A stretch of 63,196 bases of DNA, the filler included, from Reclinomonas americana ATCC 50394 (Eukaryota): NCBI GenBank assembly GCA_048213135.1. It is 5 parts of one record of this genome, joined end to end, with 100 filler letters (N's around TTAATTAATTAA, not from the genome) between each part and the next. Parts side by side here need not be neighbours in the genome. Positions count along the whole stretch, not along the records: positions 1 to 16,598 come from PS015101.1; positions 16,699 to 31,307 come from PS015101.1; positions 31,408 to 34,243 come from PS015101.1; positions 34,344 to 48,571 come from PS015101.1; positions 48,672 to 63,196 come from PS015101.1. One strand, 5' to 3'. Shown one piece after another: positions 1 through 63,152 of the stretch. The position numbers and the translations under genes are program-made. Positions within the stretch are counted from its first letter, which is position 1. Each line of letters begins with the position of its first letter. The notes under the pieces were generated by a model. The model worked only from the letters and a program-made list of their open reading frames with translations, was not told where the DNA came from and did no database searches.

Positions 1-3000
1 CGCTCGTCACGCGGCGCTCCAGCACGGCAACATATTCGTTCCGGTGATTGCTCTGCTTCAAGTCGCGACGCTCCTCACTGTGCACACCGCCGACACGCTT
101 GTCATTATGCGCACCGCAACAGCACAGTATCCAATGAGCCCCCATGCGCAACTGGTGTAGCTTCACGCCAACTGCCTCGGACACGTAGCAGCACATGCCA
201 GCCTGTTCCTCCTGCTGGAGAGAGTGCGCCAGTGCGTGGGTCTTGTAGGATTCGACGGATACACCATCGCCACACGCTCTGCGCATACGTGTTTGCGCCG
301 TGAGTGAGGAGCGTGATCACAATTGCGCGGCATTCGACGACTCAACTCACCCAATGACGGCTCGCAGATACCAAATGGTTCGCGCGTACGCTGCATCGTC
401 ACCGCTGTCCCGATGAGTGGCCATCGTGTGCGAATAGTAATCCGCCAGCGCCGGAAAGAGCAGCAAAGCTGGCTCATCCTCCATCAACGTGAACAGCTCG
501 GCCTCCGAATACGACGGACAGTACTTGACGAGCACCGCTGCGTGAAGCGAGCATTCTCAGTGTGAGTGCTCACGCTCAACTCCGAATGCATGTGTGTGTA
601 TGTGTGGCTTGCTGGCTGGAAACAGCCTCACCTCGAAGTGCAAACATGATGACATGAGTTACGGCGATCCAGTCTCGTCCAAGGAAGGAACCACAGTTGT
701 TGGCGAATGAATAAATGACGCGAGCCAGTGTCGGATCGTCGCCAGACATGGCACTTATGAAATCGGCCAGGTCCGACATCATCTGGCCGACGATGCTCTT
801 CTCGTCGACGAGACGCAGAAAGCAGGTCTCGAGTGCGGCGCGGAAACGGACAGCAATGCCCTCAGCAACTATGTGAAGGTCGATGGGCAGCAAGATGTCT
901 CGATGAACCTGCATGCGGGGGGTGGCGCGCGGTTGTGAGTTTTTGAAGGCGAGGGAAAACCTCAAACACATACACAGGCACGCACGTTAAAGTCCGGCAA
1001 GTCGGTGACGAGTGCCGATGCAGGGTTCCTGTCACCTGCCACACCCAGTATAACCGACGTCTTCCTCTTCGCAACCACTCACGTGTGTGGTATAGATTGC
1101 GCCAAACCACCTTCGGTCGCACACCGACAAATTGGTCGCGGACAACGACAGGGTGCGGCAGTCTGCGGGCAGTGGATAACATTCGATCCAGTCCTGCAGC
1201 CAGCATGCACCACCGTGCAAGTGAGGATTACGCAGCACAACGGGAGTGCTCCATGACAAACACTCACCATGGCACCACCAGCAGTGTAGCTGGCGAATAA
1301 CCGCAGCAGCCTCCTGCGCCTCAGGGCCGTCGGCTGAGTGAAACAGCAGGTCGGCGACCACCCACAACTTCCGGCCATTGATATCCGCCACAAAGCCATT
1401 TCGAAGCCGGTTCATCGAAATGGTGAGCTGTTTGTATGCTGACATGTTGCTCGTCTCTGCAAGACCATTCTCCAGCGTAAGCACCTCGAGTGTAAACACG
1501 GCTCATCACTACCCGCGTATACGTATGCGCACCTGGTGGCGTGAGACCAACGCACGGGAAGTAGCGGGATTTTCCAGCGCGCAGCTCATCATCGGCCGGC
1601 CGATTGACAATCGCCAGATGCAATGCACCTTTTGGTCGCTGCGCGCGTGTGCTCAGTGACTCTGCAGCAGCGTGACAACGAATACAGTCAGTGCACGCAT
1701 GCTGCTGGCAACAAACAAAGTCCACATCGCTCACCCTTGAAATCATCATTGTCCGTCTTTACAAACAATACCACCACTTCGTCCGCGCCGGCCTCTGTTG
1801 CCCTGACCTCCATCGTGTCATCATACTGCAATCAAGACAGTCTCTCTGTTAGTCTAACAACTGCGAAATGAGCAGCCGAGAACAACAGCAGCCTACCGTC
1901 AGCGCGACACCACTCTCAGTGCCGCGAATCTGATCGTCGGTGCATTGCACAAAGGCCATCTTGCCGCCGGCAACAACATTTGTCGGAATGACGCACAGCA
2001 ATGGGACGCTGCGTGGACGATCGGCGGAAAGCGTGTCCACATCGTTCCATCGGAACACTGGACTGGAAACTCGTCCGAGCACCGTCCCGGGATTGATTGT
2101 GACTTCCACAACAGCCGTCGTTGACGGATGTCTCGGCCACACCAAGAGGCAAGCAAAGCGCTGAGCCACATCTGCTGCTGGTTCACCCCAAACACGAACA
2201 TTATTCTGCGGTGCAAAGCACTGCCTGTCAGCGCTACTGCAGGAGACAACAATCAACATGAATTGGCGCAACTGAGGGATACGGATGGCTGTCAAACAAC
2301 CACAATTGCACCACGGTTCTTTTGACTCCGTTGGGCCCCACCTGCCACATGCGCACGAGTACACGTTGGCAACGCGAGATGCATGCCAGCACAAACGACA
2401 GTGGATGATGATCAACAACTCAACGACATCCCACGAATTCAGCACCTTGGCAATCACGTCCGCGCCGTTAACAGCAGCGCACACAAAAGAGTTCTTCCAG
2501 AGAGCGACGCGCTTGCCGCTCCCGAGAGTCGCATACGTGACAAGAGCATGCAGCTCCTTCGTCTTCACTCGCGCCCCTGTCATGGGCCCGCGACGAATAA
2601 CGCTGCCGGGTGTCTGCGGAGGTGCCGGGGGTCGTTGGTCACGGGGAGCGGGCGACACACACGCTGGGGCGCGTCGAAACACACAATACCTTGCCAGCAA
2701 CATGCAAGTGACGAGGTGTGAGGCTATCCAGTGTACCAGGCAGTGCCAGCTGACGAGCAATGGCCTTCTCCAGCCGCATGTAGTGGCCTGGTTGCTCGTT
2801 GAAGTGCTTGACGCTCTCCACATACTCCGACGCCGCAAGCCCAAATGTGCTCAACTTGCACCGCCAGTTGGATATCTTCGGGGTGGTGTCCTTGTTGAAG
2901 TTGGCTCGGGGATACGTGAGAAGCGCATAGAGCAGCTCTTGTTGGCTGTGACTGAGTTTCACCAGCTCGATGAATTGCATGAGAAGGGCGTGTTCGAGTG

Positions 3001-4115
3001 ATTTGGCAGGCGCGAACGGGTTGTCGGGCGGAATGACTTTCTGTGCGCACAGGCAAACTCAGGCACTCGCATCACCAGTAGTAACATTAGCATGATGACG
3101 CTCACATGCGCACGTACCATCTGCTTGGCAGTGAATTCCTCAATCATGTTCACAACGCGCTGATGCTCCTCGTCGGTGAACGCCTCCAGCTCGGCAGCAG
3201 CCCGCTTGAGGTCGCGCTGAAGCTCTCGCTCACTCTCGTCAGCGGCGTACGCGTCATAATCATAGTTCTCGTCCTCGTCCTCGTCCGAGCTCGGCTCAGC
3301 CTCTTCCTCGACGCACACATAGTCTGCATCACAGCGTGAGAATGAACCAACAGGGATGTCACGAAGCAGAAACCGCAGCAACACACCGTCGCTTGTACAA
3401 ACACTCTCCACATCCTCTTCCTCCTCGTCCTCCTCATCATCATCGTCCATGGGGGCTGCGGCGTCGCACTCACGGAGACGGCCGCCACCGTCGATCATCA
3501 CCGGATCGTTCTTCGGCGCAACGCGCTCGAGGACGCCATCAACTGGCATCTCATCATCGTCGCTGGTGTCTGCGGATGAGAAACGCAGCTCCATCGGGGC
3601 ATCAGCAATCTCACGAGCCAGTGCGTCGTCGGCTTGTCGCTGCCGCAGACATCGTGCGGCCCATGTCTCGAGCTGAATGCGGTGGCTCTGTGTGCATGTG
3701 TGAGAGCATCAGCACCACGGAAGGGAACGCACACACACACACACACACACACATGCCTGTGCACATCAGCGCAGAGCGACGTCGAGAAAAATGNNNNNNN
3801 NNNNNNNNNNNNNAAGTCAATCCGCGAGTTTGAGCTTTTGTCCGTCACGCACACACACACACGCACCGACACACACACGAAGAGCGCGCCCATGCACACC
3901 TTGCTGTTGATGTGTCTGAGAAAGTTGCTTGAGCGCTGAGGGGCCTTTGGTTTGCGGCCGCAACACCAACAGCGCCACTTGTTGGAGGGCACGGCGTGTT
4001 TACCTGTCGAGTGATGGACCCGCTTTTCCCTTGCCAACACGCCTGCGAGCGCATCGAGCAGGCCTGCACTGAGTAGACTCTGTGCAATGACCTGGTTGAT
4101 GGCACTGTCGGGCAC
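1..4115 (-). mobile_element. Intron-containing CACTA/En-Spm (CMC)-like DDE transposase; 3' end runs off the window, 5' start uncertain
   Basis: Spliced exons give, in order: zinc-finger-like WRCWCCGRK..SSNFLRHINSK (~3900-3985), an acidic tract (2959-3594), VLFVKTDNDDF (~1740-1775), GALHLAIVNRP, ADLLFHSADGPEA..HCWWC (~1270-1355), LLPIDLHIVAEG (~860-895), GSFLGRDW, and YKTHALAH..G..SE..KQSNH (~40-250). This matches the D..DxP..CxxC..DxxH..KxHxLxH..E motif order of CMC transposases. Confidence 0.8.
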
Positions 4116-4253
4116 CGTTCACAGTGCAGCGCGAGAGGAAGAAAGATGAGATGGAGAGGAGACGTCAGATGAGGAGGGAAACATGTGTAGAGAAGGGCTG
4201 CTCGCGTTCGAGCAGTGTACTAATGTACCGCAGCGCGTACTCGATTTATCATC

Positions 4254-5981: not shown

Positions 5982-6343
5982 CGGATCCCGATCTGGAGCG
6001 GGATATTTTTTTTGCAGTTTTTCGCAGCAGTGCAGACAAACAGACAGACTTAGAAGATGAGTACTGNNNNNNNNNNNNNNNNNNNNNNNNNNNNNCATAG
6101 TGAATGATGCAGCACTTGCTTGCGGATTGTGGCGGTGTCGGGAGGGCTGGTGCAGCGGGGGGCGCGGGATTTGGCGATATAACCGGTTCTTATACCTACT
6201 TCTGTATTGATCCCTAACTCGTAATCCAATATAGAAGCTTTCAGGCGCGCTAAACTGCGTCTTGTGTGCGTCGGAAAGATGGACGGGACTCTCGCAGCAC
6301 CCGAGATTGAGCGCATACCATACGATGAATTGTAATTAACACT

Positions 6344-7545: not shown

Positions 7546-9327
7546 ATGGTGGTCGCCGGCGTGGGCGAGCTCCTTCGCGAGCTCCCCGCCGCCCTCCAAC
7601 ACAAACCCCAAGAGCTCGTGCGCGGAGTCGTCAAAACCGTTCGCGATCTTCCGCCCGTCGTCACCCGCGCCGCACAACGATTGCCGCTCACACAGCGACG
7701 CGCGTGGGATGCGCGCAAGGGCGGCACAAAGCTCATCCCGTGCTCCCCATCGCATGTCTATCAGAGAGGCGCAGGTGCTGTGAGTGTATGTCTCTCTGTG
7801 ATGGCAGTTGACTGATCAATGATCGATTGTCAGATGTCGATCGAGAGGCTACTCTGTACATCAAAGGTATATCGCTTTCTTTCGTCGTGTTTTCCTCATT
7901 GATCGCGTGAGCTCATTGTCGCCCTCTGCGTGCACTACAGGCTTCCTTGCACCGGTGATCGATCATTCGGTTTCTTCACTTTGTCTTTGTCTTCTTCATG
8001 CTGACGATCGCTGCTTGTTGGCAGAGTGAGCGACCGGAATCGTTTCGTGAGTGGATCAAGTGCCACGAGGTGCTTGTCGACAGTCCAGCACATCAGTGGT
8101 CACCGCGGGTGCGATGCCTTCCTTGCGCACATCGTCTCCTCCTGAGCTCACCCTCGTCGTCTGCTGTAGTTGTATGGGTGGCAGTGGCCGAGTGGGCGCG
8201 TGTTTCCCGGCTACGGGCGCATTCCGATCCCGTGGACCACCATCTCCTCGCTGGTGTATGTGGTCTACAGCAAGGCGCGCAGCTTGAGCAAGTTCAACCC
8301 CGAGCTGCTGCTGGCCTCGACTGCGCAGGTGCGCCCGGGTGGAGCATCTGTGAATCTGCAGCAGGGTGGCTCACTGTGGGCATGAGTGCGCAGGACGCTG
8401 TCATCATTCTTGGTTCGCTGTGGTATCAGTGGCACAAGGCCGAGTTGGAGGCCGAGCGCCGCGCGCATCATCTCGCGCAGGAGATAGAATCGCTTCGTTT
8501 GTACCACGATCGCGTTCGCATCGTGGCGCACTCTCGTTGCGTTTGTGCGTGTGGGAGGGAAGAGGATGTTGGAAACGTGAGTGGCTCACTGTTTGTCACA
8601 GTCGGTTGCAAGCACGTGCTCGAAGCCCTGCAACTCGTTGCGTCGTCCGCCTCTTTGTGCTCTTATGTTGTTTCTCATTCCCGTGATTCGCAGATTCCCA
8701 AGAGCCATCGACCCGACGAGGTGCGAGAGAGACAGGGGCAGCTGTGATTGAAAGTGTCTCACGTGTTCACTTCAACTCCACGCGCAGCTCCACTTGTGTG
8801 CCCCCGCTGTCACCATGACGGCGAGTACTCGGTTGCTGGTCGACCCTGCCTTGGAACACACGTTTATTTATTTCACGCCAAAGGTGGCGTGGTAGCGCAC
8901 GCGAGTGAGTCTTTTTCCAGTCGCGTGCACACTCACGTTGCTGCTCCCGCGCAGGACTTTCTTTTACAATCCATGTTTCGCCTCATGAGCAAGTTCGACC
9001 GACCGCTCGGCAATGTCGGGCCACTGCCCGACGTGCCTGGCATCACCGGAATCCGCGTCTGTGACCATTTCTCTTACTGGGTCCACGGACAGGTGCGTCT
9101 CCTCTTGATTCCTCACTGTGAACCAGAACTCACTGTGCTCTCCCTTGTCTTCGCGCCAGTACAACAATCGGTTCCATCGTTTTGCTCAGGCTCTTGCCGC
9201 TTCACCGAACGCCGTCGTGGAGGAGGCCGTGCAAGAGGCTGTGGAGGAAGTCGTGATGGCGCACATAAACGCCGCCGCCGCGCAACAACAGCAACAGCAA
9301 CAGCAACCGCAACCACACCATCAATAG
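7546..9327 (+). CDS. Hypothetical multi-exon protein with poly-Gln C-terminus
   Basis: ATG at 7546 with GC3-rich codons. Exons include YGWQWPSGRVFPGYGR, DAVIILGSLWYQWHKAE, CPRCHHD, DFLLQSMFRLMSKF, and a final ...AAAAQQQQQQQQPQPHHQ*. Confidence 0.55.
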
Positions 9328-9535: not shown

Positions 9536-12500
9536 TCACAATCGGTGCACCTGGTGGGCCGTGCTCAAAAAGTGATCCGGCACCACCGCGTGCCCGACGG
9601 CGGCACCGTCCGGACCCAACGCTCGTCGCTTCACCGCATCCACACCCAACAGCGGCTCGTCCGCTCGTTCCTGCACCTGCTGTCCGCCGATACCGGCGTC
9701 GTTGAAGCGTACGTGGCCACGCTTGGCGTCGAACACGTGCGAGCGCGGGAAGCCGTCCTCCTTCTCGTCTCGCAGTCCCGGCCGCTCCAGTGTCAACTCA
9801 CCGTACGTGGTCTGTGGTCTCTGCACGCCCTGCGGCACCGTCGGGTGCACGCGATTGCCTAGTGGGTCGTAGCTGCTCGGGTACAGCGGGTGCTCCCGCT
9901 GGTTGGTATGGAACGCCTGGTAGGTGGTCTGCAGGCCGATGAAGCCTTGCGATTTGACCGCGCGGACGGGTGATTTGAGGCTCATGCCGTCGCGGCTGCC
10001 CCCAACTGCGGAGACGAAAGGGAAAGGGGGAAGATNNNNNNNNNNNNNNNNNNNNNNNNNNNNNNNNNNNNNNNNNNNNNNNNNNNNNNNNNNNNNNNNN
10101 NNNNNNNNNNNNNNNNNNNNNNNNNNNNNNNNNNNNNNNNNNNNNNNNNNNNNNNNNNNNNNNNNNNNNNNNNNNNNNNNNNNNNNNNNNNNNNNNNNNN
10201 NNNNNNNNNNNNNNNNNNNNNNNNNNNNNNNNNNNNNNNNNNNNNNNNNNNNNNNNNNNNNNNNNNNNNNNNNNNNNNNNNNNNNNNNNNNNNNNNNNNN
10301 NNNNNNNNNNNNNNNNNNNNNNNNNNNNNNNNNNNNNNNNNNNNNNNNNNNNNNNNNNNNNNNNNNNNNNNNNNNNNNNNNNNNNNNNNNNNNNNNNNNN
10401 NNNNNNNNNNNNNNNNNNNNNNNNNNNNNNAGCGAAGGGGGAAGAGCATGAGGGGAAGAGCAAAGGGGGAAAAGCAAGGGGGGAAGAGAACAGGGGAGCA
10501 AAGGGGAAGGGCAAAGGGGAAGGGCAAAGGGGGAAGGGCAAAGGGGGAAGGGCAAAAGGGGGAAGAGCAAAAGGGGGAAGGGCACAGGGGGAGGAGCAAA
10601 AAGGGGAAAGGCACAAGGGGAGAGAGCAAGGGGAAGAGTAAGCGAGAAAGCAAGGGGAAGAGTAAGCGAGAAAGCAAGCAGGAAGAGCAAGGTGAAGAAG
10701 ACAAGGGGAAAAAGCAAAGGGGAAGAGAGTACTCACCCGAATCACCAATCGGCACATCGCCACCATCGACAAAGTAACTGCGCTGCCCCTGCGTCGTGGC
10801 CCACGTCACACTGCATCGAATCAAGAGTGAGCGACGAGACACATGACTCTGTTCTCTTCTCTCTCGGCAGAAACGAAACGGATCGTCCAGCACGTCGCTG
10901 TGGCCACGCAGCGCATTGCGGTTGGTCGTTCGCCACTGATGGTCCAACATCGGATCCGTGTACGTCTTGAACTGTCGTGCGGCGTGAGACGAAAGCACCG
11001 AAAGTTGCATCCCTCTTTCCACTCACCGTGGCCGTCTTATCCACTGCGGCCTTGACGCCATTCATCAATCGGTCGTTGAAGGCACGCTGTACACTCTCTG
11101 GATGGCCGGCACCGCGGTGCACCGCGTGCTGCGTCGACTGCGTCACCATCATTCTCGTGCGGTGCGCGGAGCCAGTGGCGCGTGGGTCGCGGGATTGTGA
11201 GTACTGCGTGCAGGGGACGGTGAGTGAGAAGGAGAGGGGGAGGGAGAAGGGGGAGCGAGGAAGAAAGAGAGGAGGTGGAGGGGGAAGAAATGAAGAGAGA
11301 GATACGGAATCCGATCAGAATGCTATGCCTACTGTTGTGCATGGCTGTTATTATTCCCAAGTTTCAGAGAGCGAGATGCAGGCGAAGGCAAGAAGGCAGA
11401 AGAGGAGCGATTGGAGTGCAGTGCTCTGTGAACTTGATCTACGAAGATGAGGTGCAGCGGGAAGAAGAAGTAGAGGAGCGGCCAAACACGTTGTCGGAGT
11501 GCAGCGTCGCATAATGCCCTACTCGCGGAAGAGCAAGAGAGAAAGAGAGTGGGGAGAGCAAAGAGGGACACGCGATGTCGAACATGCGTCGGCGACTCCC
11601 TCAGTGATGGAGAGCAAACGCGAGAAAGAGGCATATCGAGTGACAGATATCGAACCCGCGATCGGAAACGAGCGTTCTGATCAATCTCTGCACGGAGTTG
11701 CACCTCTGAGAGTGAAAGATGAGACTGGGAAAAACAGATAAGAGGCAAGCCACGACTCGCAAAACGCGTTCCGATAAGGGGGAATGCAGACGGAGGAATG
11801 TGAAAGTCAGAGGACTGAGAGATGGCGAGAAATTGAACCCGCGATCGCAAATGACTGATCGTGTCTCCATGCACGTGTCAACATCCCCGCTCCGAGTGAG
11901 AGAAAGAGGCACATCGAGTGACAGATATCGAAACCCCGATCGACACGCAGTGTTCTGATCGCTTCTCCCCTCTACTTCGTGCACCTGTCAACATCACTCC
12001 GCGAGGAGAGAGGGAGAGAGTCGGCGAGAGAAATCGAACCCACGATCGGAAATGAGTGGTGTGATCGTTCTTTACACGGAGACTCTCCCCGTGCACCCCT
12101 CTGAGAGTGAATGAAAGAAAATGGAGAGAGGGAGGAGAAAGCCCAGTGAATTCCGATATCCGGTTCGATATCTCTTCTTACGTCCCCCCACCCTCTCTGC
12201 CTCCCCCATAGCCACGCAACAGTAAGTGACGTGCTCAGCGGCGCCCGCTTGTACAACGCCGCCGGATCATTCGCCGGCTTGCTCGTGTGCTTCACCATGG
12301 TCTCACTGAGATGCGTGTCGCGCCCGACACTCGCATTCAACACATGCAACGCCTACGAAAACAACAAACAAACAAAGAGAACAATCAGTAACGAGAGAGA
12401 GAGAGAGAAGGAAGAAGAACAAGCAACAAGAACAAGAAGAAGGAAGAGGAAGAGGAGGAGGAGGAGGAGGAGGAGGAGGAGGAGGAGGAGGAGGAAGGAG

Positions 12501-12558: not shown

Positions 12559-12594
<36 letters not shown>

Positions 12595-46260: not shown

Positions 46261-49200
46261 TTCTGTCTTTGTCTCAATCTTTCTTTCTCTCTCTCTCTCT
46301 GTTTCTTTGCTCCTTCTCCCCTCTCCCTGTCTCTGTTCCTTTCCTCTCATCTCTCTCACACTGTCCCTGCTCCTTCTCTCTCTCTCTCTCTCTCTGTCTC
46401 TGTTCCTTCTTCACTCTACCTCTGTCTCTCTCACCACTCTCTCCTGTGTCTCCCTCTGTGTTGCGCTCGGTGTTTCCCTTTGCACGCCCTTCTCTCATCC
46501 ACTCCCTCACTCTGCTCCCTCCCCATTGCCCCTTCTGTCTCTCTTTCCCCCTTTCCTTCCCCACCCTCACACACTTCCCTTTCCCTCCATCTCCAGCGAC
46601 CCCTTCTCCATTGTCAAGGTCCGCGATGTTGCCGCCCTCGACGAATATGTCCGCGCCAATGGAGTCGACAACCTCTTCAAACGCGACGTTCATNNNNNNN
46701 NNNNNNNNNNNNNNNNNNNNNNNNNNNNNNNNNNNNNNNNNNNNNNNNNNNNNNNNNNNNNNNNNNNNNNNNNNNNNNNNNNNNNNNNNNNNNNNNNNNN
46801 NNNNNNNNNNNNNNNNNNNNNNNNNNNNNNNNNNNNNNNNNNNNNNNNNNNNNNNNNNNNNNNNNNNNNNNNNNNNNNNNNNNNNNNNNNNNNNNNNNNN
46901 NNNNNNNNNNNNNNNNNNNNNNNNNNNNNNNNNNNNNNNNNNNNNNNNNNNNNNNNNNNNNNNNNNNNNNNNNNNNNNNNNNNNNNNNNNNNNNNNNNNN
47001 NNNNNNNNNNNNNNNNNNNNNNNNNNNNNNNNNNNNNNNNNNNNNNNNNNNNNNNNNNNNNNNNNNNNNNNNNNNNNNNNNNNNNNNNNNNNNNNNNNNN
47101 NNNNNNNNNNNNNNNNNNNNNNNNNNNNNNNNNNNNNNNNNNNNNNNNNNNNNNNNNNNNNNNNNNNNNNNNNNNNNNNNNNNNNNNNNNNNNNNNNNNN
47201 NNNNNNNNNNNNNNNNNNNNNNNNNNNNNNNNNNNNNNNNNNNNNNNNNNNNNNNNNNNNNNNNNNNNNNNNNNNNNNNNNNNNNNNNNNNNNNNNNNNN
47301 NNNNNNNNNNNNNNNNNNNNNNNNNNNNNNNNNNNNNNNNNNNNNNNNNNNNNNNNNNNNNNNNNNNNNNNNNNNNNNNNNNNNNNNNNNNNNNNNNNNN
47401 NNNNNNNNNNNNNNNNNNNNNNNNNNNNNNNNNNNNNNNNNNNNNNNNNNNNNNNNNNNNNNNNNNNNNNNNNNNNNNNNNNNNNNNNNNNNNNNNGGCT
47501 TCACCATCTTCCACGTCGCCGCCGACTCCAACAATGTTCCGATGCTCGAGTACATTTTCGAAAAGTGCCCGCAAATGGCCAACGCAGTGAGCGACGGTGG
47601 CGGCGTCACGCCTCTAATGCTGGCCTGTCGCAGCGGAGCAGTGCAGGCGGTCGAGTGGCTCCTGGCGGATGAGCGACGTTGTTCGCGGGAGATGGCACTG
47701 GCGACGTCGCTGGCAGAGTGGAATCTCCCGGCGAAATCAACTGCGTTGCATGCGGCAGCGGTGCGTGGGAAGGTGGAGATCGCGGAGATGGTTGCGAGAA
47801 AGTACCCGGAGCTGCTAAAGTGCGAGGATGAGATGTCGCGCAAGCCGGCAGAGTGTGCGCATGCGAATAAGCATGTGCATCTCGGCGCGCTACTGGCCAA
47901 AATGGAGTATGATCGGGCCGAGATTATTGCGAATCGTGCGTCCCACACCCTCTCGCCCGTATGTCTCGTAGTAGCGCATGGCATGAGTGCTTACTCTTAC
48001 TCTCGTACACAGCTGCTCCCCCTGTTCCCGCTGGAGTCCGGCCGCAGGAGCCACGGAAAAAAGGCGTTCGAGATGGCCCGCGATGGCGACCTGCTTGGAT
48101 TGCAGCGGCTGGTGAAGGCCGAGGGTCCAGAGGTACTGTTGATGAAAAAGGAGATGAGCGAGCACGGATGGTCGGCGTATGTTACAGCGGCATCTCGTGT
48201 GCGAGGAGAGGTGCTCTCGTGGCTGCTTGAAGGCAGTGGAGTAGGCCCGCAGCTGGCCCGCGGAGTTGTGCTGGATGGCGACGGCCCGTGCTTCGCATCG
48301 GCGTTTACTGTCGCTGCTGCATGCGGACACGCGGCAGTGGTGGACTGGTTGGGCAGGGACCCCAAGCGATGCCCGCCGGAGATGATGCGCGTGACAGACC
48401 GGAATGGTTCGACTGCCCTGCATCTGGCGGTCCGCGGCCATCATGCTGACGCCGTGCGCGCGGTGATGAGGCTGTGTCCTGATTTGGCGGACCAGGTGGA
48501 TAACAGAGGGAAGACGGCCGCGGAGGTGAGCGGGGCGCACCGAAAATCGATTATCAGTGACATCATTGCCANNNNNNNNNNNNNNNNNNNNNNNNNNNNN
48601 NNNNNNNNNNNNNNNTTAATTAATTAANNNNNNNNNNNNNNNNNNNNNNNNNNNNNNNNNNNNNNNNNNNNCGATGGCTGCAGCGGAGAAGAAACCGGGG
48701 GCTGATGTCGCCGCCGTCCCTGCTGTTGCCGCCGCCCCTGCTGTTGCCGCTGCCCCTGCTGTTGCCGCCGCCCCCGCTGGTGCCGCCGTCCCTGCTGCTG
48801 TCGCACCTGTTGCCGCCGCTCCTGTTGCTGCCCGTGCTCCATTGCCTGCGCGTGGTGAGTTTCTCTTCTTGAGTGTCGTGAATGATTAATCCTCGCTCAT
48901 TTTCGGGGTGAGTAACAGTGGCTCCTGCCGAGGTTCAACGGCGACTGGCCCCGCTAAAGTCAGAGTTGCGTATCATGCAGTTTGCACATTGCTCGCTGAC
49001 TCGCCCTCTCATAATCTATCATATGCACAGATGTGGCTGGCAGTGGGCGCGCGATGGGAGTGTGGAGGCTCTGCGCCAACTGGTGGCCTCCGATGGCGCA
49101 CAAGTGCTGCTCAGTGACAAGCACACTGCCAATGGCACTTGTCCTGTATTCTATCACGCCGCCGCGAATGGTCAGCTGCAAGTCCTGCAGTATTTGGAGT

Positions 49201-51968: not shown

Positions 51969-54900
51969 TTGAAAAAGCGGAGAGCTGGAAGTCGGCTCCA
52001 TGCATTCTTGCGGCATGTTGCGTCCATCCATGGCGGAGATGTGTCCTCCATGTCCCCGAAACCGCGACTGCTGCAAGGATCGCCAAGCATGACCGACCCC
52101 ATTCCCACTCTGAGCACAGTCATTGGCTGGATCTACTTCTTTGCTGTTGCGTCTCTTCTTTGCACGTAAGAATGAGTGTGTGTGTGTGAGAAGAGAGAGA
52201 GTGTTCCAGCATGTCCACTCACGCTCTCATTCACGCTCTCAGTGGAGCATCAGCTTCTACTTTCAAGTGTGGGTCAACTGGAGACGAAAGAGTGTCATTG
52301 GGCTTTCCTTTGACTTTTTGGCTTATAACATCACGGGTGTGTTTGTGTGTGTGAGAGAGAGAATGAGAGTGTGTCAGGACTCCACTTGTGCTCACTGTTG
52401 TGTGTGTGTGTGTGTGCATCTGTGTGTGTGCATCTGTGTGTGTGCATCCGTCTCTCACTCTCGATCTCGTCTCTCTCTCTGTGTGTGTGTGTGTGTGCAT
52501 CCGTCTCTCACTCTCGCTCTCTCTCTCTCTGTGTGTGCAGGCTACATTTGCTACAGTTGCGGGCGCTCGTGTGTGCTTCTTGAGTGCATGAGTGTGTTTC
52601 CTCTTATCTTCTCTTCTTTTCGTATGTCAGCGACCTTCAACTGTGCGTTGTACTGGAATGCTACTGTGCGAGCGGATTATGAGCGTGATACGGTCAGTGC
52701 AGGGAGGAGAGGGAAGGGGTGTGAGAATTCAAGTTCGGAGAAACATGCAGTGAGGGATGTTCTTTGGCTTGGTCTGCACTTGCTCTTTCTCTCGTCTTCC
52801 TTTCTGTCTTTCTCCTTTCTCCTTGCCTTGTTGATCCTTTGGGCTTTGAAGGCTTGTTTGGCAGCGTCGTAGATTCCCTCTGCGCTTGCCCTGTCGTCTT
52901 GTTCTGCTCTCTCAGCCTGTGGAAGTCGGCATGCCAAACAATGGACAATGCTTTGCTGTGCTCACCACTTGCATCCTTTCTTTCTTCAAAGTCTTGCTGT
53001 GCATGGTCGGCATTATCCGCTGCGCTTGCCTCGTTGTATTCTCTGTACTCTCTCTGCTGTGACTGTGCCTTGCCTCTCTCTTCTTCCTTGCAGCCTTTCT
53101 CCTTTGCACTATTGATCCCTCGGCATTATAGGGCTTGTTTGGCAGCTGAAGAGAGTGCAGTGCGATCTCTCTTTTCTTTTTTCCTTTATCTTCGTGGCTT
53201 GTTCGACGCGTCACACAGTAAGAAGAACAGTGCGTGTTGCCTCTCTCACTTGATTCTCATCGTCCTAATCACTCGCTTCTTGTCCACCGCTTCACCGACT
53301 GCCCCAACATTCTCTCGTGCCTTCACCCCTTCTCACCTCCCCACCACCCAGGGCTCCAAAAACATTGGCGTGCAACCAAACGACATTGCCTTTGCCATCC
53401 ACGCCCTGGTCATCACCATCTTCACCATCTACCAGTGCTTCATCTACGAGGTCAGTTGGTTTGAAAATAGTGTTCATTTAGCCTATTGCTGACTCTCACT
53501 ACATGTGTGCGTGGTCTGTGTGTCTGTCGATCTGCATATCCGTGTGTGTGACTGTCTCTCTCTCTCTCTCCTCCTCTCCTCTCTCCTCTCTCTTCTCTTT
53601 CTTCTCTCTCTCCTCCTCTCTCTCTCTCTCCTCTCTCTCTCTTCCCTTTCTCTTCCCCCACTCTCTCCCTTTCTCTCTCCCTCTCTCTCCCTCTCTCTCC
53701 CTCTCTCTCCCTCTCTCTCCCTCTCCCTCTCTCCCCCCGCTCCCCTCCCTTCCTCCCCACAGCGCGCCAATCAAAAAGTGTCGCTGATTGCACGCATCAT
53801 TCTCGGCTGCATGTGGCTCTTCATGATCATTGTCACCATCCTGCCGGCTACCGGTGTCATTGACTGGTACCAGGGCTTGACGTTCCTCGCGTTGCGTCTC
53901 CATACACCTGTGCTGCTCTCTTCCCCTCCTGCTTGGCTAACAGCAGTGCGACACAGATACACCAAGATGTTTGCCAGCTTTGTAAAGGTGTGCATGAGCG
54001 CCTGATTGTGCGGGGCGGTGAGTGTGTGTGCTGAGTGCTGGTGTGCCGCAGTACTGTCCGCAAGCATGGATCAATTTCAAGAGAAAATCGACTGTCGGCT
54101 GGAGCATTGGTGAGCGGGACGCGCGCTCTCTGTGTAAACATGGTGATCGTAGCTCACCACTTCACAGGCAACATTCTGCTGGACTTCACCGGTGGCACGC
54201 TGTCCATTCTGCAGCAGATTCTCGATTCGATCGACAAGGGTACGCATCGGTGCGGGCGTTGTTCACTGGCGCTGCGCTCATTCTCTTGCAGACGATTGGA
54301 GCCCACTGACTGGCGATCTGCCCAAGACTGGTCTCGGCTTCGAGTCGATTTTCTTTGACATTCTGTTCATGATTCAAGTTGAGTCGCTGACTTTGTCACT
54401 CTGTTTGCTCTCATCTCTGTCTCTCCTTGTCTATCGCTTTGTTTGCCCCTTTGTGTCACCTCTTTGTCTCCCTGTTCCTGCATTCTTTCCTTCTTTCTTA
54501 CTCGCTTCCCTTCTCGTCTCTCATCTCTTCGTCCGTTCCTCCCTGGCCTATCTCCCTTCAGCGCATACTCCCTCTTTCGGAGCCCTCGCCATTCCCCTCT
54601 CCCTTCTTTGCTCCGCTTCACCTCTCCCCTCCCCTTCGTGCTTCTGGTCTCCCCCCTTCCCTCTTGTTTCTTCGCTTTCCCTGGCCTTTCCTGCCTCGTG
54701 CCGTTGTCTCTCCCCTCACATTCAGTTCCCGTCACCCCTCCTTCTCTTCATGTTTCCCTTCTTCGATGGTCTATCTTCTCCCTTTTGTCTCTGCTTCTCC
54801 CTTTCTCACTCCTTTGCCTATTCGCAGCACTACTGCCTGTACCGCAACCGACACGACCCGGCGCTGGAGAAGCTCAAGGAGGCCGCCGACGACTCAAAGG

Positions 54901-55010: not shown

Positions 55011-55053
55011 GGATGTGTGTTGTTGTTGTTGTGTTTTCTCGTTCATCTGTCTT

Positions 55054-57041
55054 TTATAATGCGATAAATCCGTCGTCGTCTTCTTCGTCCTTCTTGGCCT
55101 CGTCGAAATCGTCCGGATCCGTGTTGGAGAATGCCCGCTTCTTGGCCAGTCGGGCGGCGGCATCAGAAGGCGACGACGATGAACCGGCAGCGGCCTGCTT
55201 GAGCGCAGGATGTCAGTTCGTGCATTGTCACAGCAGTGGAAATCAACAAGCATGCACGCACCCTGACGTAGCCCTTGACCTTCCACTGGTCCTTGCTCGA
55301 CTCCATGACTTCGCTCGACACCACACACCGATACGCTTTGCGCGACTCGCCGCGCACCACCGCCCTCCGGCAGTTGTCCGTCACGAAATGCTTCGCCGAC
55401 GAGAAGTCGGCACCCGCCAGTGCGCCGCTGTGTGCGGGCACAGTGAGAGGACGACGATGGGAAGAGGGCGGATGAGGGAGGACGCAACAGATTGGTCACG
55501 TCGTATGGACCGCGCACAAGCAAGGGTTCCGAGGAGCCGCAGGAGAAGATGAGCGCCTTGTACTTGAGCAAGCGCAGGAGCGTCATGACGTTGCTGACAA
55601 AGTAGCGTCGTGCGCCGGCGTCTGCGGGAGGGTGCGGGTGTGAGGAGGTCGGTGAGAGGGAAAGGGAGGTAAAGAGGGGGGGAAGAGGGAGAGAGAGCGA
55701 CGAGAAGAGCAAGGAGCATGACAGGAGAGTGAAGAACGCAGAAGTTGAGGGAACCCTTTGCGTTTGAAAGGTGACTCGGAAGTTAAACCAAGTCGTCACG
55801 CCGAGGAATGAGGAAGAAAGAAAGACAGAGAAAAGGATGCGACTGAAGTGCGCAGTACAGGCAACAAGGAACAGAGGGGAGAAAAGGCGCTTCAACCGTG
55901 TGCAGGAAACGACAACCGAGTCACCGAGTTGAGACAAAGAAAGAGTGTAAGAGAGGGGAATAAATGCACTGAGGTGCGCATTGCATGAGACGGAGGAGAC
56001 GCCGCGCTTGAATTGTGAGCAGGAGATGCCAACCGTGTCGTCAAGCTGGAGACAGGAAAAGACGGACTGCAGGCGTGCACGGAGGAGAGGAACAGAATGC
56101 AGAAGATGACAACCACTTTGTCGCGCTGACAGAGAGGGAGAGAGAGGGAGAGCGAGAGAGAGAAAAGAGAGCAAGAGAGAGAGAACACGTGCCATGGAGG
56201 AGATAGCGTGCTCGAACGGTGTGTGTGTGTGTGAGAGAGAGAAGAGAGTGTTCGCGAACGCGTGCGGCAACGTCCAAGATTAGAAACGACTCGGTTGGCC
56301 TGCACCCTGTCCTTCTCCCCCCGTTCTCCCACTCACCCTTGATGGCCGTCCCATAATTGGCCTCCAGCACGACCTCACGCGCACGTGCCTGGCTGAGAAT
56401 CTTGAACTTGAGAGGGTACGCCGGTCGCTGACACACATCCAACACGATAATGTCGGCATCCACCGATGCACAGCACGTGCGCAGTGTGGCCTCCGACTCG
56501 GGCTGCACCGCGACCAGATCAAACTTTTGCANNNNNNNNNNNNNNNNNNNNNNNNNNNNNNNNNNNNNNNNNNNNNNNNNNNNNNNNNNNNNNNNNNNNN
56601 NNNNNNNNNNNNNNNNNNNNNNNNNNNNNNNNNNNNNNNNNNNNNNNNNNNNNNNNNNNNNNNNNNNNNNNNNNNNNNNNNNNNNNNNNNNNNNNNNNNN
56701 NNNNNNNNNNNNNNNNNNNNNNNNNNNNNNNNNNNNNNNNNNNNNNNNNNNNNNNNNNNNNNNNNNNNNNNNNNNNNNNNNNNNNNNNNNNNNNNNNNNN
56801 NNNNNNNNNNNNNNNNNNNNNNNNNNNNNNNNNNNNNNNNNNNNNNNNNNNNNNNNNNNNNNNNNNNNNNNNNNNNNNNNNNNNNNNNNNNNNNNNNNNN
56901 NNNNNNNNNNNNNNNNNNNNNNNNNNNNNNNNNNNNNNNNNNNNNNNNNNNNNNNNNNNNNNNNNNNNNNNNNNNNNNNNNNNNNNNNNNNNNGCGGCAC
57001 CGCACAAGCCACCTGCGACAACAGCAACAATCAGCAGCGAG

Positions 57042-57073
<32 letters not shown>

Positions 57074-58267
57074 CAACAAAGCGGCGAAAGCGCACCATGG
57101 CCTGCAACTGCTGCGGCTCGTTGATGGCAATGGTGACGCGCTTCAGCACGCGGAAGTTCTTGCGTGCCGAGCTCAGGTCGAGTGGGCGATTGAGCAGGCG
57201 TTCCTCGCGCGTGCTCAGTGCGCTNNNNNNNNNNNNNNNNNNNNGCGAATGAGTTCGTCGAGGCGGTCCGAGAGGGTGTTCTGCGCGGGAGGGGAAGGGA
57301 GGGTATAAAGGGAAAGAGACGCACGAAGGGGAAGGGAGTGTGAGAGAGAGAGAAGATGGTGGGGATGGAGGAGAGGAGGAATGGTGGGAACGGAGGGAAG
57401 AGAGGAGAAGGGAGGTCGAGCGAGGGAGTAAGGGAAAGGAAAGAGAAGGAGCAAGTGGTGAGAATGGAGAGGAGAGAGGAGAAGGATGCAGTAATGGAGA
57501 GAGAAGAGGGAAGGGAAGAGAGAAGGAACGAGCGGTGGGAAAGGTGAGAAGGGAGTAGACAGAAGAGAAGGGCACAATAATCGAGAGAGGGAAGGAACGA
57601 CTCATGGGAAGGTGGGAATGGAGAGGAAGGGTGCAGTGAGTGAGAGGCGGAAGGAAAAGGGAAAGCGAAGGAGCAAGCAGTGGAAAAGGTGCGAATGGAC
57701 AGGAGAGTGGAGAAGGGAAGGCGAGCGAAGGAGTGAGAGAAAGGAAAGAGAAGGAGCAAGTGGTGAGAATGGAGAGGAGAGAGGAGAGGGAATGGGAGGG
57801 AGAAGGAGGGCATGGAACGAGTGGTGGGGAAGGTGGGCGCGGAGAAGATAGAGGAGAAGGGTACAGTAATGGAGACAGAAGGAGGGAAGGGAAGAGAAAA
57901 GGAACAAGGGGAGAAGGGAGGGAAGTGGAGAAGAGCAAAGGAAGGAAAGAAAGGGCAATGCAGAGACTTACGGACAGAATGCATGCAATGAGAGAATGCA
58001 AGGACACTCACCAGTGCATCACTGGCCACTCGATCGCGCACAGTGACACTGAGCGCAATGCATTCAAAGCCATCTGAACATGAGAAAGGAAGTCAATCAC
58101 AAATGCACTCTCTCTCTCTCTCACACACACACAGACACAATCAACCAACAATGCAACGTCTCTCTCTCTCCACCTCTCACTCTCCACACGCAACATTCAA
58201 TGTACACATCAATCAGCTCGCCCACACTCTCCACACCAAGACCATCGACAACCACGTTCAAATCCAT
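55054..58267 (-). CDS. RPP30: RNase P/MRP subunit p30
   Basis: MDLNV...YGFECIAL, VLKRVTI, FDLVAVQPESE, DADII, EANYGTAIK, ARRYFVSN, LIFSCGSSEPLLVRGPYDVTNL. Confidence 0.9.
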
Positions 58268-58599
58268 ACCAAAACACAATGAAAAGCGATGTAAAAGGGC
58301 ACAAGTCCGCAATCTGTTGATTTGATTGCATTCTCTTTGTCTTTCTCTTGTGTTTGTGTGACTGTGTGAGAGATAACATATGGGTGATCACACTGATGAT
58401 ACGATGACTGATGTGGAGCTTCCGTACTTGCGGTTCAATGATGCACCGCGAGATGTGATGGTCGGTCAACATCGGCATTTTGTCACGCGTCAAGTTGCGC
58501 ATGAGAGAGATGAGTGAGTGAGTGAGAGAGAGTGTGTGTAGGAGGAGAGTGTGTGTGAGTGATGAGTGTGAGGTGAGTGCGAGAATGGCGCGAGAAGTC

Positions 58600-59582
58600 T
58601 GATTTCCGAACCACATGCATGCATGTGCAATCAATGATTGACTTCCGTGTTGATCTTCTTCTTCTGCTGTGAGTGGACGCATAGTGAGAGACAGTGCATG
58701 TAGTGCGGCTGAGGCGTGCGGGGATGTCACAAGAGGTTTGATTTCCAGGTTGGAATCATGCATGCATGCATGCAAGCAAAGATTGACTTCGTATTCATTT
58801 TCTCCTGGTGTGAGTGGACGACGCTGATGCATTGTGAGAGAGAATGCATGTGATGTGTTGGGGGCATGCGGATGTCACTTGTGATTTCCAGGTTGGAATC
58901 CTGCGTGCATGCAATCTGTGATTGACTTCGTGTCGATCTTCTTCTTCTGCTGGGAGTGGACGCACAGTGAGAGACAGTGCATGTGGTGCGGCTGAGGCGT
59001 GTGGGGATGTCACAAGAGGTTTGATTTCCAGGTTGGAATCCTGCATGCATGCAATCGGTCATTTGACTTTGTATTCATTTTCTCCTGCTGTGAGTGGACG
59101 ACGGTGATGTATTGTGAGAGAGAATGCATGTGATGTGTTGGGGGGCATGCAGGGATGTCATTTGTGATTTCCAGGTTGGAATCATACATGCATGCAATCG
59201 GTCATTGACTTCGTGTTGATCTTCTTCTGCTGTGAGTGGACGACGCTGATGTATATATAGTGAGAGAGAATGCGTGAATGTGATTAACGGATTGGAGTCA
59301 TGCATGCGATCTGTCGTCGATCTTATGTTGAGAGAGAAAGCATGCCGGAGGTCTTGCAGGTTGGAATCATGCACGTGTTCAGCTTGCCTTGATCGCGTGA
59401 GAAGTCTCGCTTGCAAGCTAGAATCGTGCATGCATTCAGCCTGTTCTTCTTGGTGCACAGTGAGAGAGTTGCTTGCAAGTTAGAATCATGCATGTATCCA
59501 GCCTGTTCTTCTTGGTACACAGTGAGAGAGAATGCATTCCTTTATCGTGTGAGAAGCCTCGTTTCCATAGCGAGACCATGCA
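58600..59582. repeat. Degenerate satellite: ~140-bp monomers in ABAB order, then decayed copies
   Basis: GATTTCCAGGTTGGAATC at ~58740, 58884, 59023 and 59166; GCATGC-rich. Confidence 0.85.
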
Positions 59583-60228
59583 TTCTACAATCTTCTTGAA
59601 GCACAGTGAGAACACATGACTGCGACTTCTCCTCCTCCTCCTCCTCCTCCTTCTCCTTCCCCTCCTCTTTCTCCTTCTTCGACCTTCGATTATTGACTAT
59701 CGTCTCCAGTCGTCGGCATTGCCCTCCTCTGCCGGTATGAACGGACGGCCAGTGAGTGGGATGAGCACGACGCGCATTGGACTGAACATTGACACGACGA
59801 GGAGGGGATCGATGGCGGGCATGTCGTTGCCGATGCGACCGCTCAAGTCGTCGCACTATGCTGGTGAGTGCTGCTTGCTCTAGTGCGTTGGTTGCACGCT
59901 CTTTCTCGTGCTGTGTGCTGCTTTTTCACACCATCATCAATGCCTTCGATCAATGCGGTCACGCTGTCGCCTGGTGGGCGCTGTGTGTTTCTTTCTGCTG
60001 CTCTGTCATGTGCACGTTCATTCGCACGGTCTTGTGCTGAACCTTCTCTGCAATCCTTCTTAACTCTCCCTTACTCCTTCACCTAACGCTGGAGCTCTCG
60101 AGAGCTGCGCCTTCTTCGATGTCTTTCATGTGAACTGTCGTGTGCACGCTCATTCTCACGGTCGTGTGTCGGCCTTATCTATTTCCAAAACTCTGTCTCG
60201 CTCTGTCGAGCGTTCACCTGATGCAATC

Positions 60229-61552
60229 ATGTGCTCTGCTGTCCCGTATTCTGCGTCCTTCCTGGACTGAATCTGCCTGGCTCTGAGATCCACCGCTGGA
60301 GCTCTCGTGTGCTGCACCTTTTCTCCACAGCTGATATCCTCTCCCTCCCATCGCCGCAGGATGCTGCTCTTCCTGGAACCAATGTGGCTTGTTCTGGAAG
60401 ACGTGGTGCGTGCTTTCTTCTCCTGCTGCCCTCCCTCGCCGTCGTGCTTCTGACCTTCGTTCACGTTGACAGCTCGCTCTCTCGGCGTCGCCTGCCGTAC
60501 ACGATCGACGGACACTCGAACGGCGTGTTGCAGCTGACGGTGGGCGAACCGTCTTCTGTTCTCGGTGCGTGTCGTGAAAGAACACGCTGCATGGTCGGCG
60601 TTACGTGCTCCTCATCCACCGGCGCACAGCATGCGGTTGCACGGCATTGGAGCACTTGTACTGCTGGATGCCTGTTGGCCTCATTGCCATTCTCTTTGAC
60701 CGCTCTAGAAACTCAGAAGTTGTGTGTGCATGTTCTGCGTGTCGCATCGCTGTCTCTCTCGCACTTACCATGCCCGCCACAGTATTCAACGAATACCCAC
60801 CTCCAACACACCGCGGATGCAACCGGTGGCCTGTCGTACATTACTTTTGACTCCAGTTCGCGGTATGTGGGCTCGATCAATTACAACACGTACGTCATGC
60901 CACTCACCATGTGTCTGCGCCTCCGCCAGCGACATGGACATCAGGTGCGTCGCAGACTCTCTCTCTCCCTCACTCTCCTACCAACTCACTCACATCGCCG
61001 CAGCTCGTACACGTGTTCGTATGGCTGCTGCGGATTGTGCTGCTGTCAGCAGAGCATGAAGATCTCTGGCGTCATGTCCATTGATGTAGAATCGGCCCCA
61101 AGTGCGTAATGTCCTCGCAGGTGGAGAGTTATTTCGTGGAGTCACTAACTCTCTCGCAGGGCACAAAGATCCCAGGCAGATGCGATACCGCGTGGTGGTG
61201 TACGACCGGTCAGCACCGATTCCCCTTCGCACTCTTCCCCCCCTGGTGTCGCACTGAAATTCGTGTGTTTTATCACAGCGCCGAGCGTCCATACGCCATC
61301 ACAAAACAAGTGGACTCGCGGAACGACGCAGAGGCTGTGCGCGCCATCGTCGAGTCGCACGCCCTCAGTGGCGGTCGTGCGCTCCAACGCAGTGCCTCAA
61401 GTTGCGCTCTGTTACCCGCGTGCACGTCTGTAGCGACGCTCACTCTTCCCTTCACTCACGCGCGCGTAGATCGATCGAGCTTGCAGTCGGCCGACCTCGA
61501 GTCACACGTGTCTGTGCTGGGTCCACCAATCGCCCGCTCCCCGTTCCAGTGA
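60229..61552 (+). CDS. Hypothetical multi-exon, possibly membrane, protein; start uncertain
   Basis: Coding-like exons with a hydrophobic segment (ACFLLLLPSLAVVLLTFV) and AG/GT boundaries, ending ...ARSPFQ*. Confidence 0.5.
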
Positions 61553-61787
61553 CCTGCTCTCCTTCTTCTCCCTCGCTCACCCACTAGATTAGCACACCTA
61601 AGTATCACTGTTTTGAATTGAGCTGTTAAAAATGACTTGCATTGCGTATCCTCCTCGCTCAGTTCCCTTTCCAATTGTCCCGTTTTTTTTATCGGTGCTT
61701 GCTGCTGCCGAAACCAGTGAAGCCAACCAGTGCCGCCAGCTCCGGATCGAGGTCCTCCGTTTCTGCGAGGCAAGAGAGAGGTGAGAG

Positions 61788-63152
61788 TCACGGCGACGAG
61801 GAAGTTGCTGGCCTCTCGGTTGGCGACGCACCTGCAGTGACTGGCTTGGGCGCATCCGGGTTCTTTTTCCTGCGTTTGCGCTCCCTCTCCTTGTCCTCCT
61901 CCTCCTGCCGCTTCAGTCGCTCCTCAATGTCCTCGTCACGCAGCGCCACCTTGTTCTTTCTCTCCTTGGCCTCACGCAGCTTTTGGCGCACGTCGACCAC
62001 GGTGGCGCGTTGAGTGCGCATGCTGAAGCCCATGTTGCGTTGATCTATAATGGGGGAAGGGGGAGAAGGGGTGAGGGAAAGGGGTGAAGCGGGAAGGGAG
62101 GGGAGGAGGGGAAGGGAGAGAGAGAGCGAGGAGGGAGGAGCACGTGGCATGCAAGAGAGGAAGGAAGGCTGCACATTCACAACGATTCTGCCACGCGTAG
62201 AAGAGAGAGCACGACAGAGAGGGAGAGAGAGCACGACAGAGAGACAGAGAGAAAAGAACTCATTCACAACGATTCCAACAGCGACAGCGTCAGCAAGTAG
62301 ACTCGATGTACGGATAGCAGAGGGCGCATGTCGCACACACATCCAGAGAGGCAGGGAGAGGGAGAGAGAGAGACGGAGGATGAGGACAAGGGAACGGGGT
62401 GCACGACAGAAGAGAGAATGAGCACAGATCCACAACAGTCCCACTCATTCTGTCGACCATCAAGGACATGATGCTCTCGGAAGTGGGGCACTCAGCCTCA
62501 GGTCACATTCTCTCCTTCCGTAGTCTCTCTCTTTATCTCTCTGAGTGCGTGTGTGTGCGAGCGCGCGCGCTCTCTCTCTCTCTCTCTCTCTCTTCCTATC
62601 TCTATGATGAGCGCGCTTCTCTTTCCTTGCGCAAAGAAGAGAAATGCATGAGAGCGGATAAGTGGGAATGAGAAGGAAACAATGACTCTCGACAACAACT
62701 GTGACTGCGACTTCGCAAGGAGAGGAAAGAGAGGCGCACCAGCAGGAGGAACAGAAGACGCTCTCTCTCGCTCTCTTCGCAGCACACACAAGCGTGCATA
62801 CGAGGCAGCGAAAGAGAAGGAGTGAGTTGGAAACAAGTATCTCTCAGAAGTCTGGTCTTTCCTTCCAACCTCGGACTAACCGAGTCTTGCCCTTTCTTCC
62901 NNNNNNNNNNNNNNNNNNNNNNNNNNNNNNNNNNNNNNNNNNNNNNNNNNNNNNNNNNNNNNNNNNNNNNNNNNNNNNNNACCCTTTCCCCACTACCCAC
63001 TCAACGTTTCTTCCCGTTGATATGATCCAAATAGTTCGTGCTGTCCTTGATCAGACACTGGCACACATCACAGAAGAAGCCACCCTGACCGGCGAGTCCC
63101 GTGGCGCTGTTGATGACCAGCGATTTGCCGACTTGACTCTCGAAATTGACCT
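61788..63152 (-). CDS. ZMAT2: ZMAT2/Snu23 spliceosomal matrin-type zinc-finger protein, 3' part
   Basis: [40 protein letters not shown]...[12 protein letters not shown]; exons at 63006-63152 and 61788-62045. Confidence 0.92.

Follow-up and report, generated by a model that had tools for sequence, protein, structure and literature searches.

The question raised by a 63,196-nucleotide (nt) stretch of the genome of Reclinomonas americana ATCC 50394 (assembly GCA_048213135.1, record PS015101.1), hereafter the window, is how its introns are recognized at their 5' splice sites (donors): next to introns with ordinary donors there are many that open with GTTGCG or, less often, GTTGAG, and they do so after exons that end in a base other than G. 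The reading preferred here, to which we give a probability of about 0.5, is that these are genuine GT-AG introns carrying a second, rigid donor consensus, H/GUUG(C>A)GU (the slash marks the cut between exon and intron, and H is any base but G), which would be recognized by a reader other than the textbook U1 5' end, U1 being a small nuclear RNA (snRNA). The introns and their second consensus are taken directly from the sequences, and the non-textbook reader is what we infer from them.

Donor sites and gene models

As for the sites themselves, an initial annotation of the window had named 21 GTTGCG and 2 GTTGAG donors, each after a non-G exon base; all are present at the coordinates and on the strands claimed, and the preceding base is A, C, or T in 23/23 cases (Table 1). 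Gene models were rebuilt by hand and checked by script for a cystinosin, two lipase paralogs located on different contigs, RPP30 (modelled in two parts flanking a gap), ZMAT2, an ABC transporter, and two ankyrin paralogs. These models support 19 of the 23 donors through their reading frames and through continuity with homologs or profiles, while the other four (152, 8637, 12220, and 61401) are neither supported nor refuted; the supported sites reduce to 14 independent ones when paralogous pairs are counted once (four pairs among the eight lipase sites, and one formed by the two ankyrin sites). A script assertion confirmed that every modelled intron begins with GT and ends with AG (55/55), and after their removal the reading frames are colinear with the homologs, as judged from frames, alignments, and profile coordinates. 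The spliced frames run uninterrupted to their stop codons in cystinosin (11 exons), in the lipase paralogs (13 and 12 exons), in RPP30, and in ZMAT2; clean spliced open reading frames (ORFs) are also obtained for the ABC half-transporter and for ankyrin genes A and B.

Regarding cystinosin, the spliced protein aligns with the homolog P0009 over residues 2-243, with 54.5% identity and 0 gaps, and it is also free of gaps against P0024, P0011, P0041, P0002, and P0084; the gap-free stretch covers all ten junctions, including the four made by GTTGMG donors (M is C or A). The start of exon 2 coincides with position 13 of the PQ-loop profile and with W114 of 8dyp_A; PDB searches with exon 1 and with exon 11 returned nothing useful. 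The gene occupies positions 52089-55010; in a set of 1.84 billion cluster representatives, the full-length homolog most similar to its product reaches just 54.5% identity, and a close relative of this cystinosin seems not to be represented among them.

In the lipase paralogs, sequence conservation extends through GTTGCG(T) and collapses immediately after it, and the Lipase_3 profile is matched on the two sides of the donor at 14678 over positions 70-88 and then 93-125. In RPP30, the exon that ends at 55488 stops at N205 of 6ahr_I and the next one starts at G207, the split codon CT/C accounting for residue 206; at 58194 neither flanking exon has a Pfam match, so the evidence for this second donor is weaker. 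In ZMAT2, the zf-met profile is matched over positions 1-24 of 25, one residue short at the junction, and thus the last zinc-binding His is the codon C/AT split by the intron at 63005. In a metagenome contig from an unrelated eukaryote (L001, positions 887-1130; AT-rich, 23% GC), ZMAT2 is interrupted by an intron with identical position and phase, in the same split His codon, with the donor C/GTAAAA; the shared position indicates that this intron is old and present across distant eukaryotes.

With this evidence at hand, it is highly improbable that the class is an artefact, be it of mis-assigned exon boundaries, of a wrong assembly, or of mobile "introner" copies with a common terminus. What such an explanation has on its side is that the junctions are known from sequence alone, that 4/23 sites fall in genes without homologs and are unsupported, and that the window is a draft pseudo-scaffold of five contigs (1-16598, 16699-31307, 31408-34243, 34344-48571, and 48672-63196; 6,749 N included). 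These are joined by linkers (16599-16698, 31308-31407, 34244-34343, and 48572-48671), each made of 44 N, TTAATTAATTAA, and another 44 N, where TTAATTAATTAA is a 12-base spacer with stops in all frames; because of this joining, neighbouring genes on different contigs are possibly unlinked. Against an artefact stand the gap-free homolog alignments, the residue-exact junctions, the ancient intron position in common with the ZMAT2 gene of L001, and the occurrence of the motif in eight genes on four different contigs; moreover, the introns show no similarity to each other beyond +7, except between paralog pairs, a result that does not support introner copies.

The last exon base and the share of introns

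Regarding its frequency, the variant is a mainstream donor class in the curated genes, in agreement with the initial annotation: GTTGMG opens 19 of the 54 curated introns (35%), counted after removal of an implausible 18-nt "intron" in the ABC gene (19837 to 19819). As the curated genes were those flagged by the same annotation, this value is probably an overestimate, and a fifth to a third of introns is probably the fairer range.

The class is tied to the last base of the preceding exon (position -1), which is A in 7, C in 7, T in 5, and G in none of the 19 variant donors; among the other donors it is G in 31/35, and the four exceptions are all GTGAGT. Fisher's test on these counts gives p = 4.8e-11; with lipase B and ankyrin B set aside as paralog copies, the value becomes 1.9e-8. 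The split by the -1 base that had been proposed for the remaining donors also holds, with G-ending exons followed by a degenerate GTNNGT and the few non-G exons by GTGAGT (4/4). In other words, the strength of the exon end and that of the intron side are anticorrelated. The PPIP5K gene adds two more introns, with G at -1 in both. The GTGAGT donor shared by the ankyrin paralogs is preceded by T at 42411 (+) and by G at 48855 (+), which fits a perfect GTGAGT that tolerates a non-G exon end.

At the level of the whole window, GTTGCG occurs 57 times versus 39.9 ± 6.75 in shuffled sequences (57 or more in 1/100 shuffles), and GTTGAG shows no enrichment (27 vs 47 in shuffles). The heptamer GTTGCGT is observed 24 times, with ∼12.8 expected from a third-order Markov model; it is preceded by G in 0/24 cases, versus 7/33 for GTTGCG followed by a base other than T. 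Within the eight curated gene spans (18,282 nt), GTTGMG in the sense orientation is a donor in 19/20 cases, and the antisense copies are 10. The sole sense copy that is not a donor, a/GTTGCGGGCG, is exonic and lies in the ABC gene (19753-19758, minus strand).

Anatomy of the two donor classes

The ordinary donors (n = 36) have G in 24, A in 5, C in 4, and T in 3 at +3; A in 16, C in 13, T in 6, and G in 1 at +4; G in 36/36 at +5; and T in 29, C in 6, and A in 1 at +6. The variant donors have T at +3, G at +4, and G at +6 in 19/19, with C in 17 and A in 2 at +5, and T in 17, C in 1, and G in 1 at +7. The description of the variant as the usual motif with one extra T is borne out by this comparison: its positions +4 to +7 correspond to the ordinary +3 to +6, one base further from the cut.

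As for the 3' ends, the acceptor is CAG in 17/19 variant and 29/31 G-class introns (those after an exon-final G), a CTVAY branch-like motif is found in 16/19 and 24/31, respectively, and in both classes a CTCAC/CTGAC-like (CTSAC) motif lies 10-35 nt upstream of the 3' end. Introns of 130 nt or less are 16/19 in the variant class and 26/35 among the others. Judged by these 3' ends, the variant introns would belong to the major (U2-type) GT-AG kind. Their assignment to the U12 type was considered and rejected, because the donors are GTTGMG and the CTSAC and CAG of the ordinary introns recur in the 3' tails, the U12 consensus being taken as it is commonly described.

Pairing with U1 and alternative modes of recognition

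The initial annotation had related the motif to shifted or bulged pairing with U1. Pairing was computed with RNAduplex in free register against the 5' end of the textbook U1, with the sequence taken from PMC9311317; the mean energy was -1.19 kcal/mol for the 19 variant sites, with +0.5 in 10/19, versus -7.8 for the 31 G-class sites and -6.25 kcal/mol for the four H/GUGAGU sites. Within the variant class GUUGCGU scores about 0, and GUUGAGU alone reaches -3.5 to -4.0 kcal/mol. At the M position, the variant class has C and A in the ratio 17:2, to be compared with 0:4 for H/GTGAGT (p = 0.0017) and with 13:12 for the G class (p = 0.010). From a standard U1 pairing in the shifted register, a preference for A at the variant +5 would be expected, contrary to the C observed. 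On both grounds, shifted or bulged pairing with the textbook U1 is not supported in the form first proposed, a result that is valid for the textbook sequence, from which the U1 of this organism may differ.

It is therefore doubtful that a single textbook U1 reads both classes, with GUUGMGU shifted by one base or its extra U bulged, with U1-C or other proteins stabilizing the duplex, and with U6 and U5 setting the cut. This explanation can count on a one-base offset that fits position by position, on the energies of GUUGAGU in such a register, and on the good fit of the G-class and H/GUGAGU donors to the textbook U1; shifted and bulge registers are also experimentally established in human cells (PMC4856993). 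However, the dominant GUUGCGU is essentially without predicted pairing, the M position departs from expectation in the sense given above, and the human +2/+3 bulge register concerns only 68 of 201,541 sites, all the non-canonical registers adding up to 2.1% (Tan et al. 2016, PMC4856993).

A choice of the site that is largely independent of U1 is unlikely. In this case, the motif would be read at the stage of U6 (through its ACAGAGA box) and of U5/Prp8, as an extreme split between exon-anchored and intron-anchored donors. The sharp anticorrelation of exon-end and intron-side information goes in this direction, as does the existence of two U2-type classes of 5' splice site whose potentials for interaction with U5 and U6 are anticorrelated (PMC10581693); in addition, the variant G-U at +6/+7 could pair with the U6 bases used by the ordinary +5/+6. 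A standard ACAGAGA box would, on the other hand, be expected to offer no pairing to the U-G-C of the motif, and the pairing with U6 is short and its register is bound to catalysis (PMC4856993).

Returning to the preferred reading, the lack of textbook U1 pairing in any register and the preference for C where GUGAGU has A point to a non-textbook reader. The other option of the initial annotation, variant U1/U6 snRNAs, would thus be the one favoured, if any. The candidates are U1 itself, altered at its 5' end, and a second RNA of the U1 type that is complementary to GUUGCGU; the guide would be about ACGCAAC in the normal register or ACGCACC in the register shifted by one base. Among all 7-mer guides, a scan identified no sequence that fits the three donor classes well; the value for ACGCAAC is -8.4 in the variant class, as against -3.7 and -3.1 in the other two. 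It is a tentative proposal, with the odds leaning to the other side, that 5' splice sites have another dedicated reader, either a U1-like snRNA or a re-tuned U1/U6 pair, with a guide complementary to GUUGCGU, and that it serves roughly a fifth to a third of introns within an otherwise ordinary U2-type splicing.

Several points weigh against this reading. Conservation of the U1 5' end across eukaryotes is very broad, and this makes a changed or second U1 less likely a priori. The pairing energies were computed for the textbook U1 end, with U1-C and other proteins left out of account, and the reader snRNA is derived from the motif and from these energies, no snRNA being present in the window. 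Without paralogs, the C:A contrast has p = 0.015 vs H/GTGAGT and p = 0.076 vs the G class, on small numbers. Finally, the motif alone is insufficient for use as a donor, judging from the ABC copy at 19758 (minus strand), which is apparently unused and of which the 10-mer is the same as that of the genuine cystinosin donor at 52556. With small numbers, an energy model free of proteins, and an snRNA that is deduced, confidence in a non-standard reader is moderate only.

Proposed recognition of the variant donors

As far as the sequences show, the exon-final G is the main anchor of the ordinary donors in this genome, which otherwise require only GU and the G at +5, usually with U at +6. Where coding constraint bars an exon-final G, the intron side of the donor has to be near-perfect; ZMAT2 is an example, with its His codon split after C both here and in a distant eukaryote. 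Two near-perfect solutions are found, the rare GUGAGU and the common GUUGCGU. In the latter, the invariant G-U is at +6/+7 instead of +5/+6; the distance from the cut at which the block is read thus grows by one base, while the cut itself is set by the only available GU. No "avoidance" of G needs to be assumed for the conditional pattern: as an exon ending in G requires only a loose donor, GTTGCGT would rarely arise there by chance.

Other features of the window

The donors are collected in Table 1, together with the four cases in which a non-G exon end is followed by a perfect GTGAGT. The genes that host sites 152, 8637, 12220, and 61401 have no homologs, and their codon-usage score is near zero. 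One further candidate, c/GTTGCGTTTG, absent from the initial annotation, begins at 8536 (plus strand), 101 nt upstream of 8637. The GT..AG interval that it opens (8536-8601) is 66 nt long and contains a branch-like CTCAC, and the two sites may represent two short variant-class introns in succession.

Table 1. Predicted donors of the variant class and perfect GTGAGT donors after a non-G exon end (the slash marks the proposed cut)
Gene or site	Positions	Strand	Donor	Remarks
Cystinosin, intron 1	52146..52152	+	T/GTTGCGT	97-nt intron; clean ORF; gap-free alignment
Cystinosin, intron 3	52556..52562	+	A/GTTGCGG	75-nt intron; junction after residue 55.3, no indel vs six homologs
Cystinosin, intron 6	53891..53897	+	C/GTTGCGT	66-nt intron; junction after residue 151.7, no indel
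Cystinosin, intron 10	54378..54384	+	A/GTTGAGT	450-nt intron; exon 10 end = residue 238 of 7zk1_A
Lipase A	14672..14678	-	C/GTTGCGT	paralog of 27239; Lipase_3 continuity, clean ORF
Lipase A	13804..13810	-	A/GTTGCGT	paralog of 27061; conservation and clean ORF
Lipase A	13402..13408	-	C/GTTGCGT	paralog of 25556; conservation and clean ORF
Lipase A	13223..13229	-	C/GTTGCGT	paralog of 25373; conservation and clean ORF
Lipase B	27233..27239	-	T/GTTGCGT	paralog conservation and clean ORF
Lipase B	27055..27061	-	A/GTTGCGT	paralog conservation and clean ORF
Lipase B	25550..25556	-	C/GTTGCGT	paralog conservation and clean ORF
Lipase B	25367..25373	-	C/GTTGCGC	paralog conservation and clean ORF
RPP30, intron 1	58188..58194	-	T/GTTGCGT	121-nt intron; clean ORF
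RPP30	55482..55488	-	T/GTTGCGT	61-nt intron; exons abut on human RPP30 (6ahr_I)
ZMAT2	62999..63005	-	C/GTTGAGT	961-nt intron, including an 80-N gap
ABC transporter	20287..20293	-	T/GTTGCGT	66-nt intron; clean ORF of 606 amino acids
ABC transporter	18648..18654	-	A/GTTGCGT	68-nt intron; ABC_tran profile 1-55 stops at exon end
Ankyrin gene A	42520..42526	+	A/GTTGCGT	phase 2, 62-nt intron; paralog alignment, clean ORF
Ankyrin gene B	48965..48971	+	A/GTTGCGT	phase 2, 66-nt intron; paralog alignment, clean ORF from ATG 48674
Putative donor	146..152	-	A/GTTGCGC	75-nt intron possible
Putative donor	8637..8643	+	C/GTTGCGT	57-nt intron to 8694 possible; coding score -0.5
Putative donor	12214..12220	-	T/GTTGCGT	gene without homologs
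Putative donor	61401..61407	+	A/GTTGCGC	gene without homologs
Candidate donor	8536..8542	+	C/GTTGCGT	GT..AG interval to 8601
Perfect GTGAGT	13650..13655	-	H/GTGAGT	lipase A span; one of four
Perfect GTGAGT	25789	-	H/GTGAGT	curated model
Perfect GTGAGT	19304	-	H/GTGAGT	curated model
Perfect GTGAGT	42411	+	H/GTGAGT	curated model

The content of the window is eukaryotic nuclear DNA with numerous short exons. An Rfam scan of it gave 0 families at the gathering score and no snRNA; a scan by E-value gave no snRNA either, only spurious microRNA-like matches at ∼12560-12670 and weak matches elsewhere. The segment 12560-12670 is a (GA)n/(CT)n microsatellite that forms a palindrome or hairpin, and the sub-threshold matches to microRNA families that originate from it are almost certainly spurious. 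Pfam was searched with 564 of the 571 window ORFs of at least 60 amino acids (7 ORFs between 50580 and 51296 were excluded) and few families were found, while searches for homologous proteins with single exons as the query gave no match. A gene finder based on dynamic programming and agnostic to the donor recovered 25/40 curated introns, with many implausible donors, and was excluded from the counts.

Regarding intron size, the lengths of the curated introns are bimodal, most being 52-121 nt long and a minority 165-1182 nt long and full of microsatellites of the kind of (GT)n and (CT)n. Between the two lipase paralogs, orthologous introns are of very different size (755 vs 65, 62 vs 1152, and 65 vs 1182 nt). 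Both lipases also need a micro-exon of 2 nt to keep the frame, cag/AC/GTGAGT at 13656-13657 and cag/AT/GTGAGT at 25790-25791, both on the minus strand; it completes an Asp codon, after the Pro of the preceding exon and before the Leu-Pro-Pro of the next one, and the two copies differ synonymously. Finally, the coding region of the ABC gene includes an 18-nt GT...AG segment (19820-19837, minus strand) with an in-frame TGA inside, while the other introns are at least 52 nt long; this segment could be a tiny intron, an assembly error, or the sign of another exon structure, for instance with a T/GTTCTG donor 75 nt upstream and the same acceptor.

Significance and comparison with known systems

If the class extends to the whole genome, a large share of introns carries a start signal beyond textbook U1 pairing, and the organism becomes a natural system in which an old question can be put to direct test, that of how far a 5' splice site may drift in register and in reader; a second dedicated reader, if true, would represent a third mode of 5' splice-site recognition besides U1 and U11. 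There are also consequences for annotation: with one donor matrix for all introns, a gene finder would overlook or wrongly place as many as a third of them here, and many gene models would be frameshifted. Being strictly dependent on the last exon base, the class is moreover an unusually clean natural case of the trade-off between exon-side and intron-side recognition. A literature search for donors of the GTTGCG type, or for a comparable class, gave no relevant result in the accessible main texts that it covered.

Shifted (+1) and bulge U1 registers were reportedly described at atypical human sites by Roca & Krainer in 2009 and by Roca et al. in 2012. Those sites and the present ones have in common a GU followed by one extra base and then by the normal block, the cut staying at GU and the pairing block moving one base further; to this extent the one-base offset resembles, by analogy, the shifted and +2/+3-bulge registers of rare human sites (PMC4856993). 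The human sites, however, are rare and pair well with the textbook U1, whereas here the variant accounts for 19/54 introns, is a near-invariant 7-mer, and pairs poorly.

As for the exon side, U2-type 5' splice sites are divided into exon-anchored (U5) and intron-anchored (U6) classes (Parker et al. 2022, as cited in PMC10581693), and the pattern reported here, with a loose intron motif after a G-ending exon and a strict one after a non-G end, is an extreme form of that trade-off. In plants and animals, register does not differ between the two classes, and the split amounts to a statistical tendency; in the present case it is near all-or-none (exon-final G in 0/19 vs 31/35) and involves a different consensus, offset by one base.

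With regard to a second reader, animals have variant U1 snRNAs (for example, human vU1), that is, more than one U1 sequence per genome, possibly with different preferences for 5' splice sites; we know of no variant U1 that serves a mainstream intron class. U12-type introns, read by U11, offer the precedent of a second reader and of a minority of rigid donors beside a degenerate majority. The variant introns differ from them in that their donor does not match the U12 consensus as generally known, no U12-type branch site lies near their 3' end, and their branch-like motif and CAG are ordinary; they also differ in abundance, as minor introns are ∼0.36% in mammals (PMC4856993) and the class found here probably makes up about a fifth to a third of introns.

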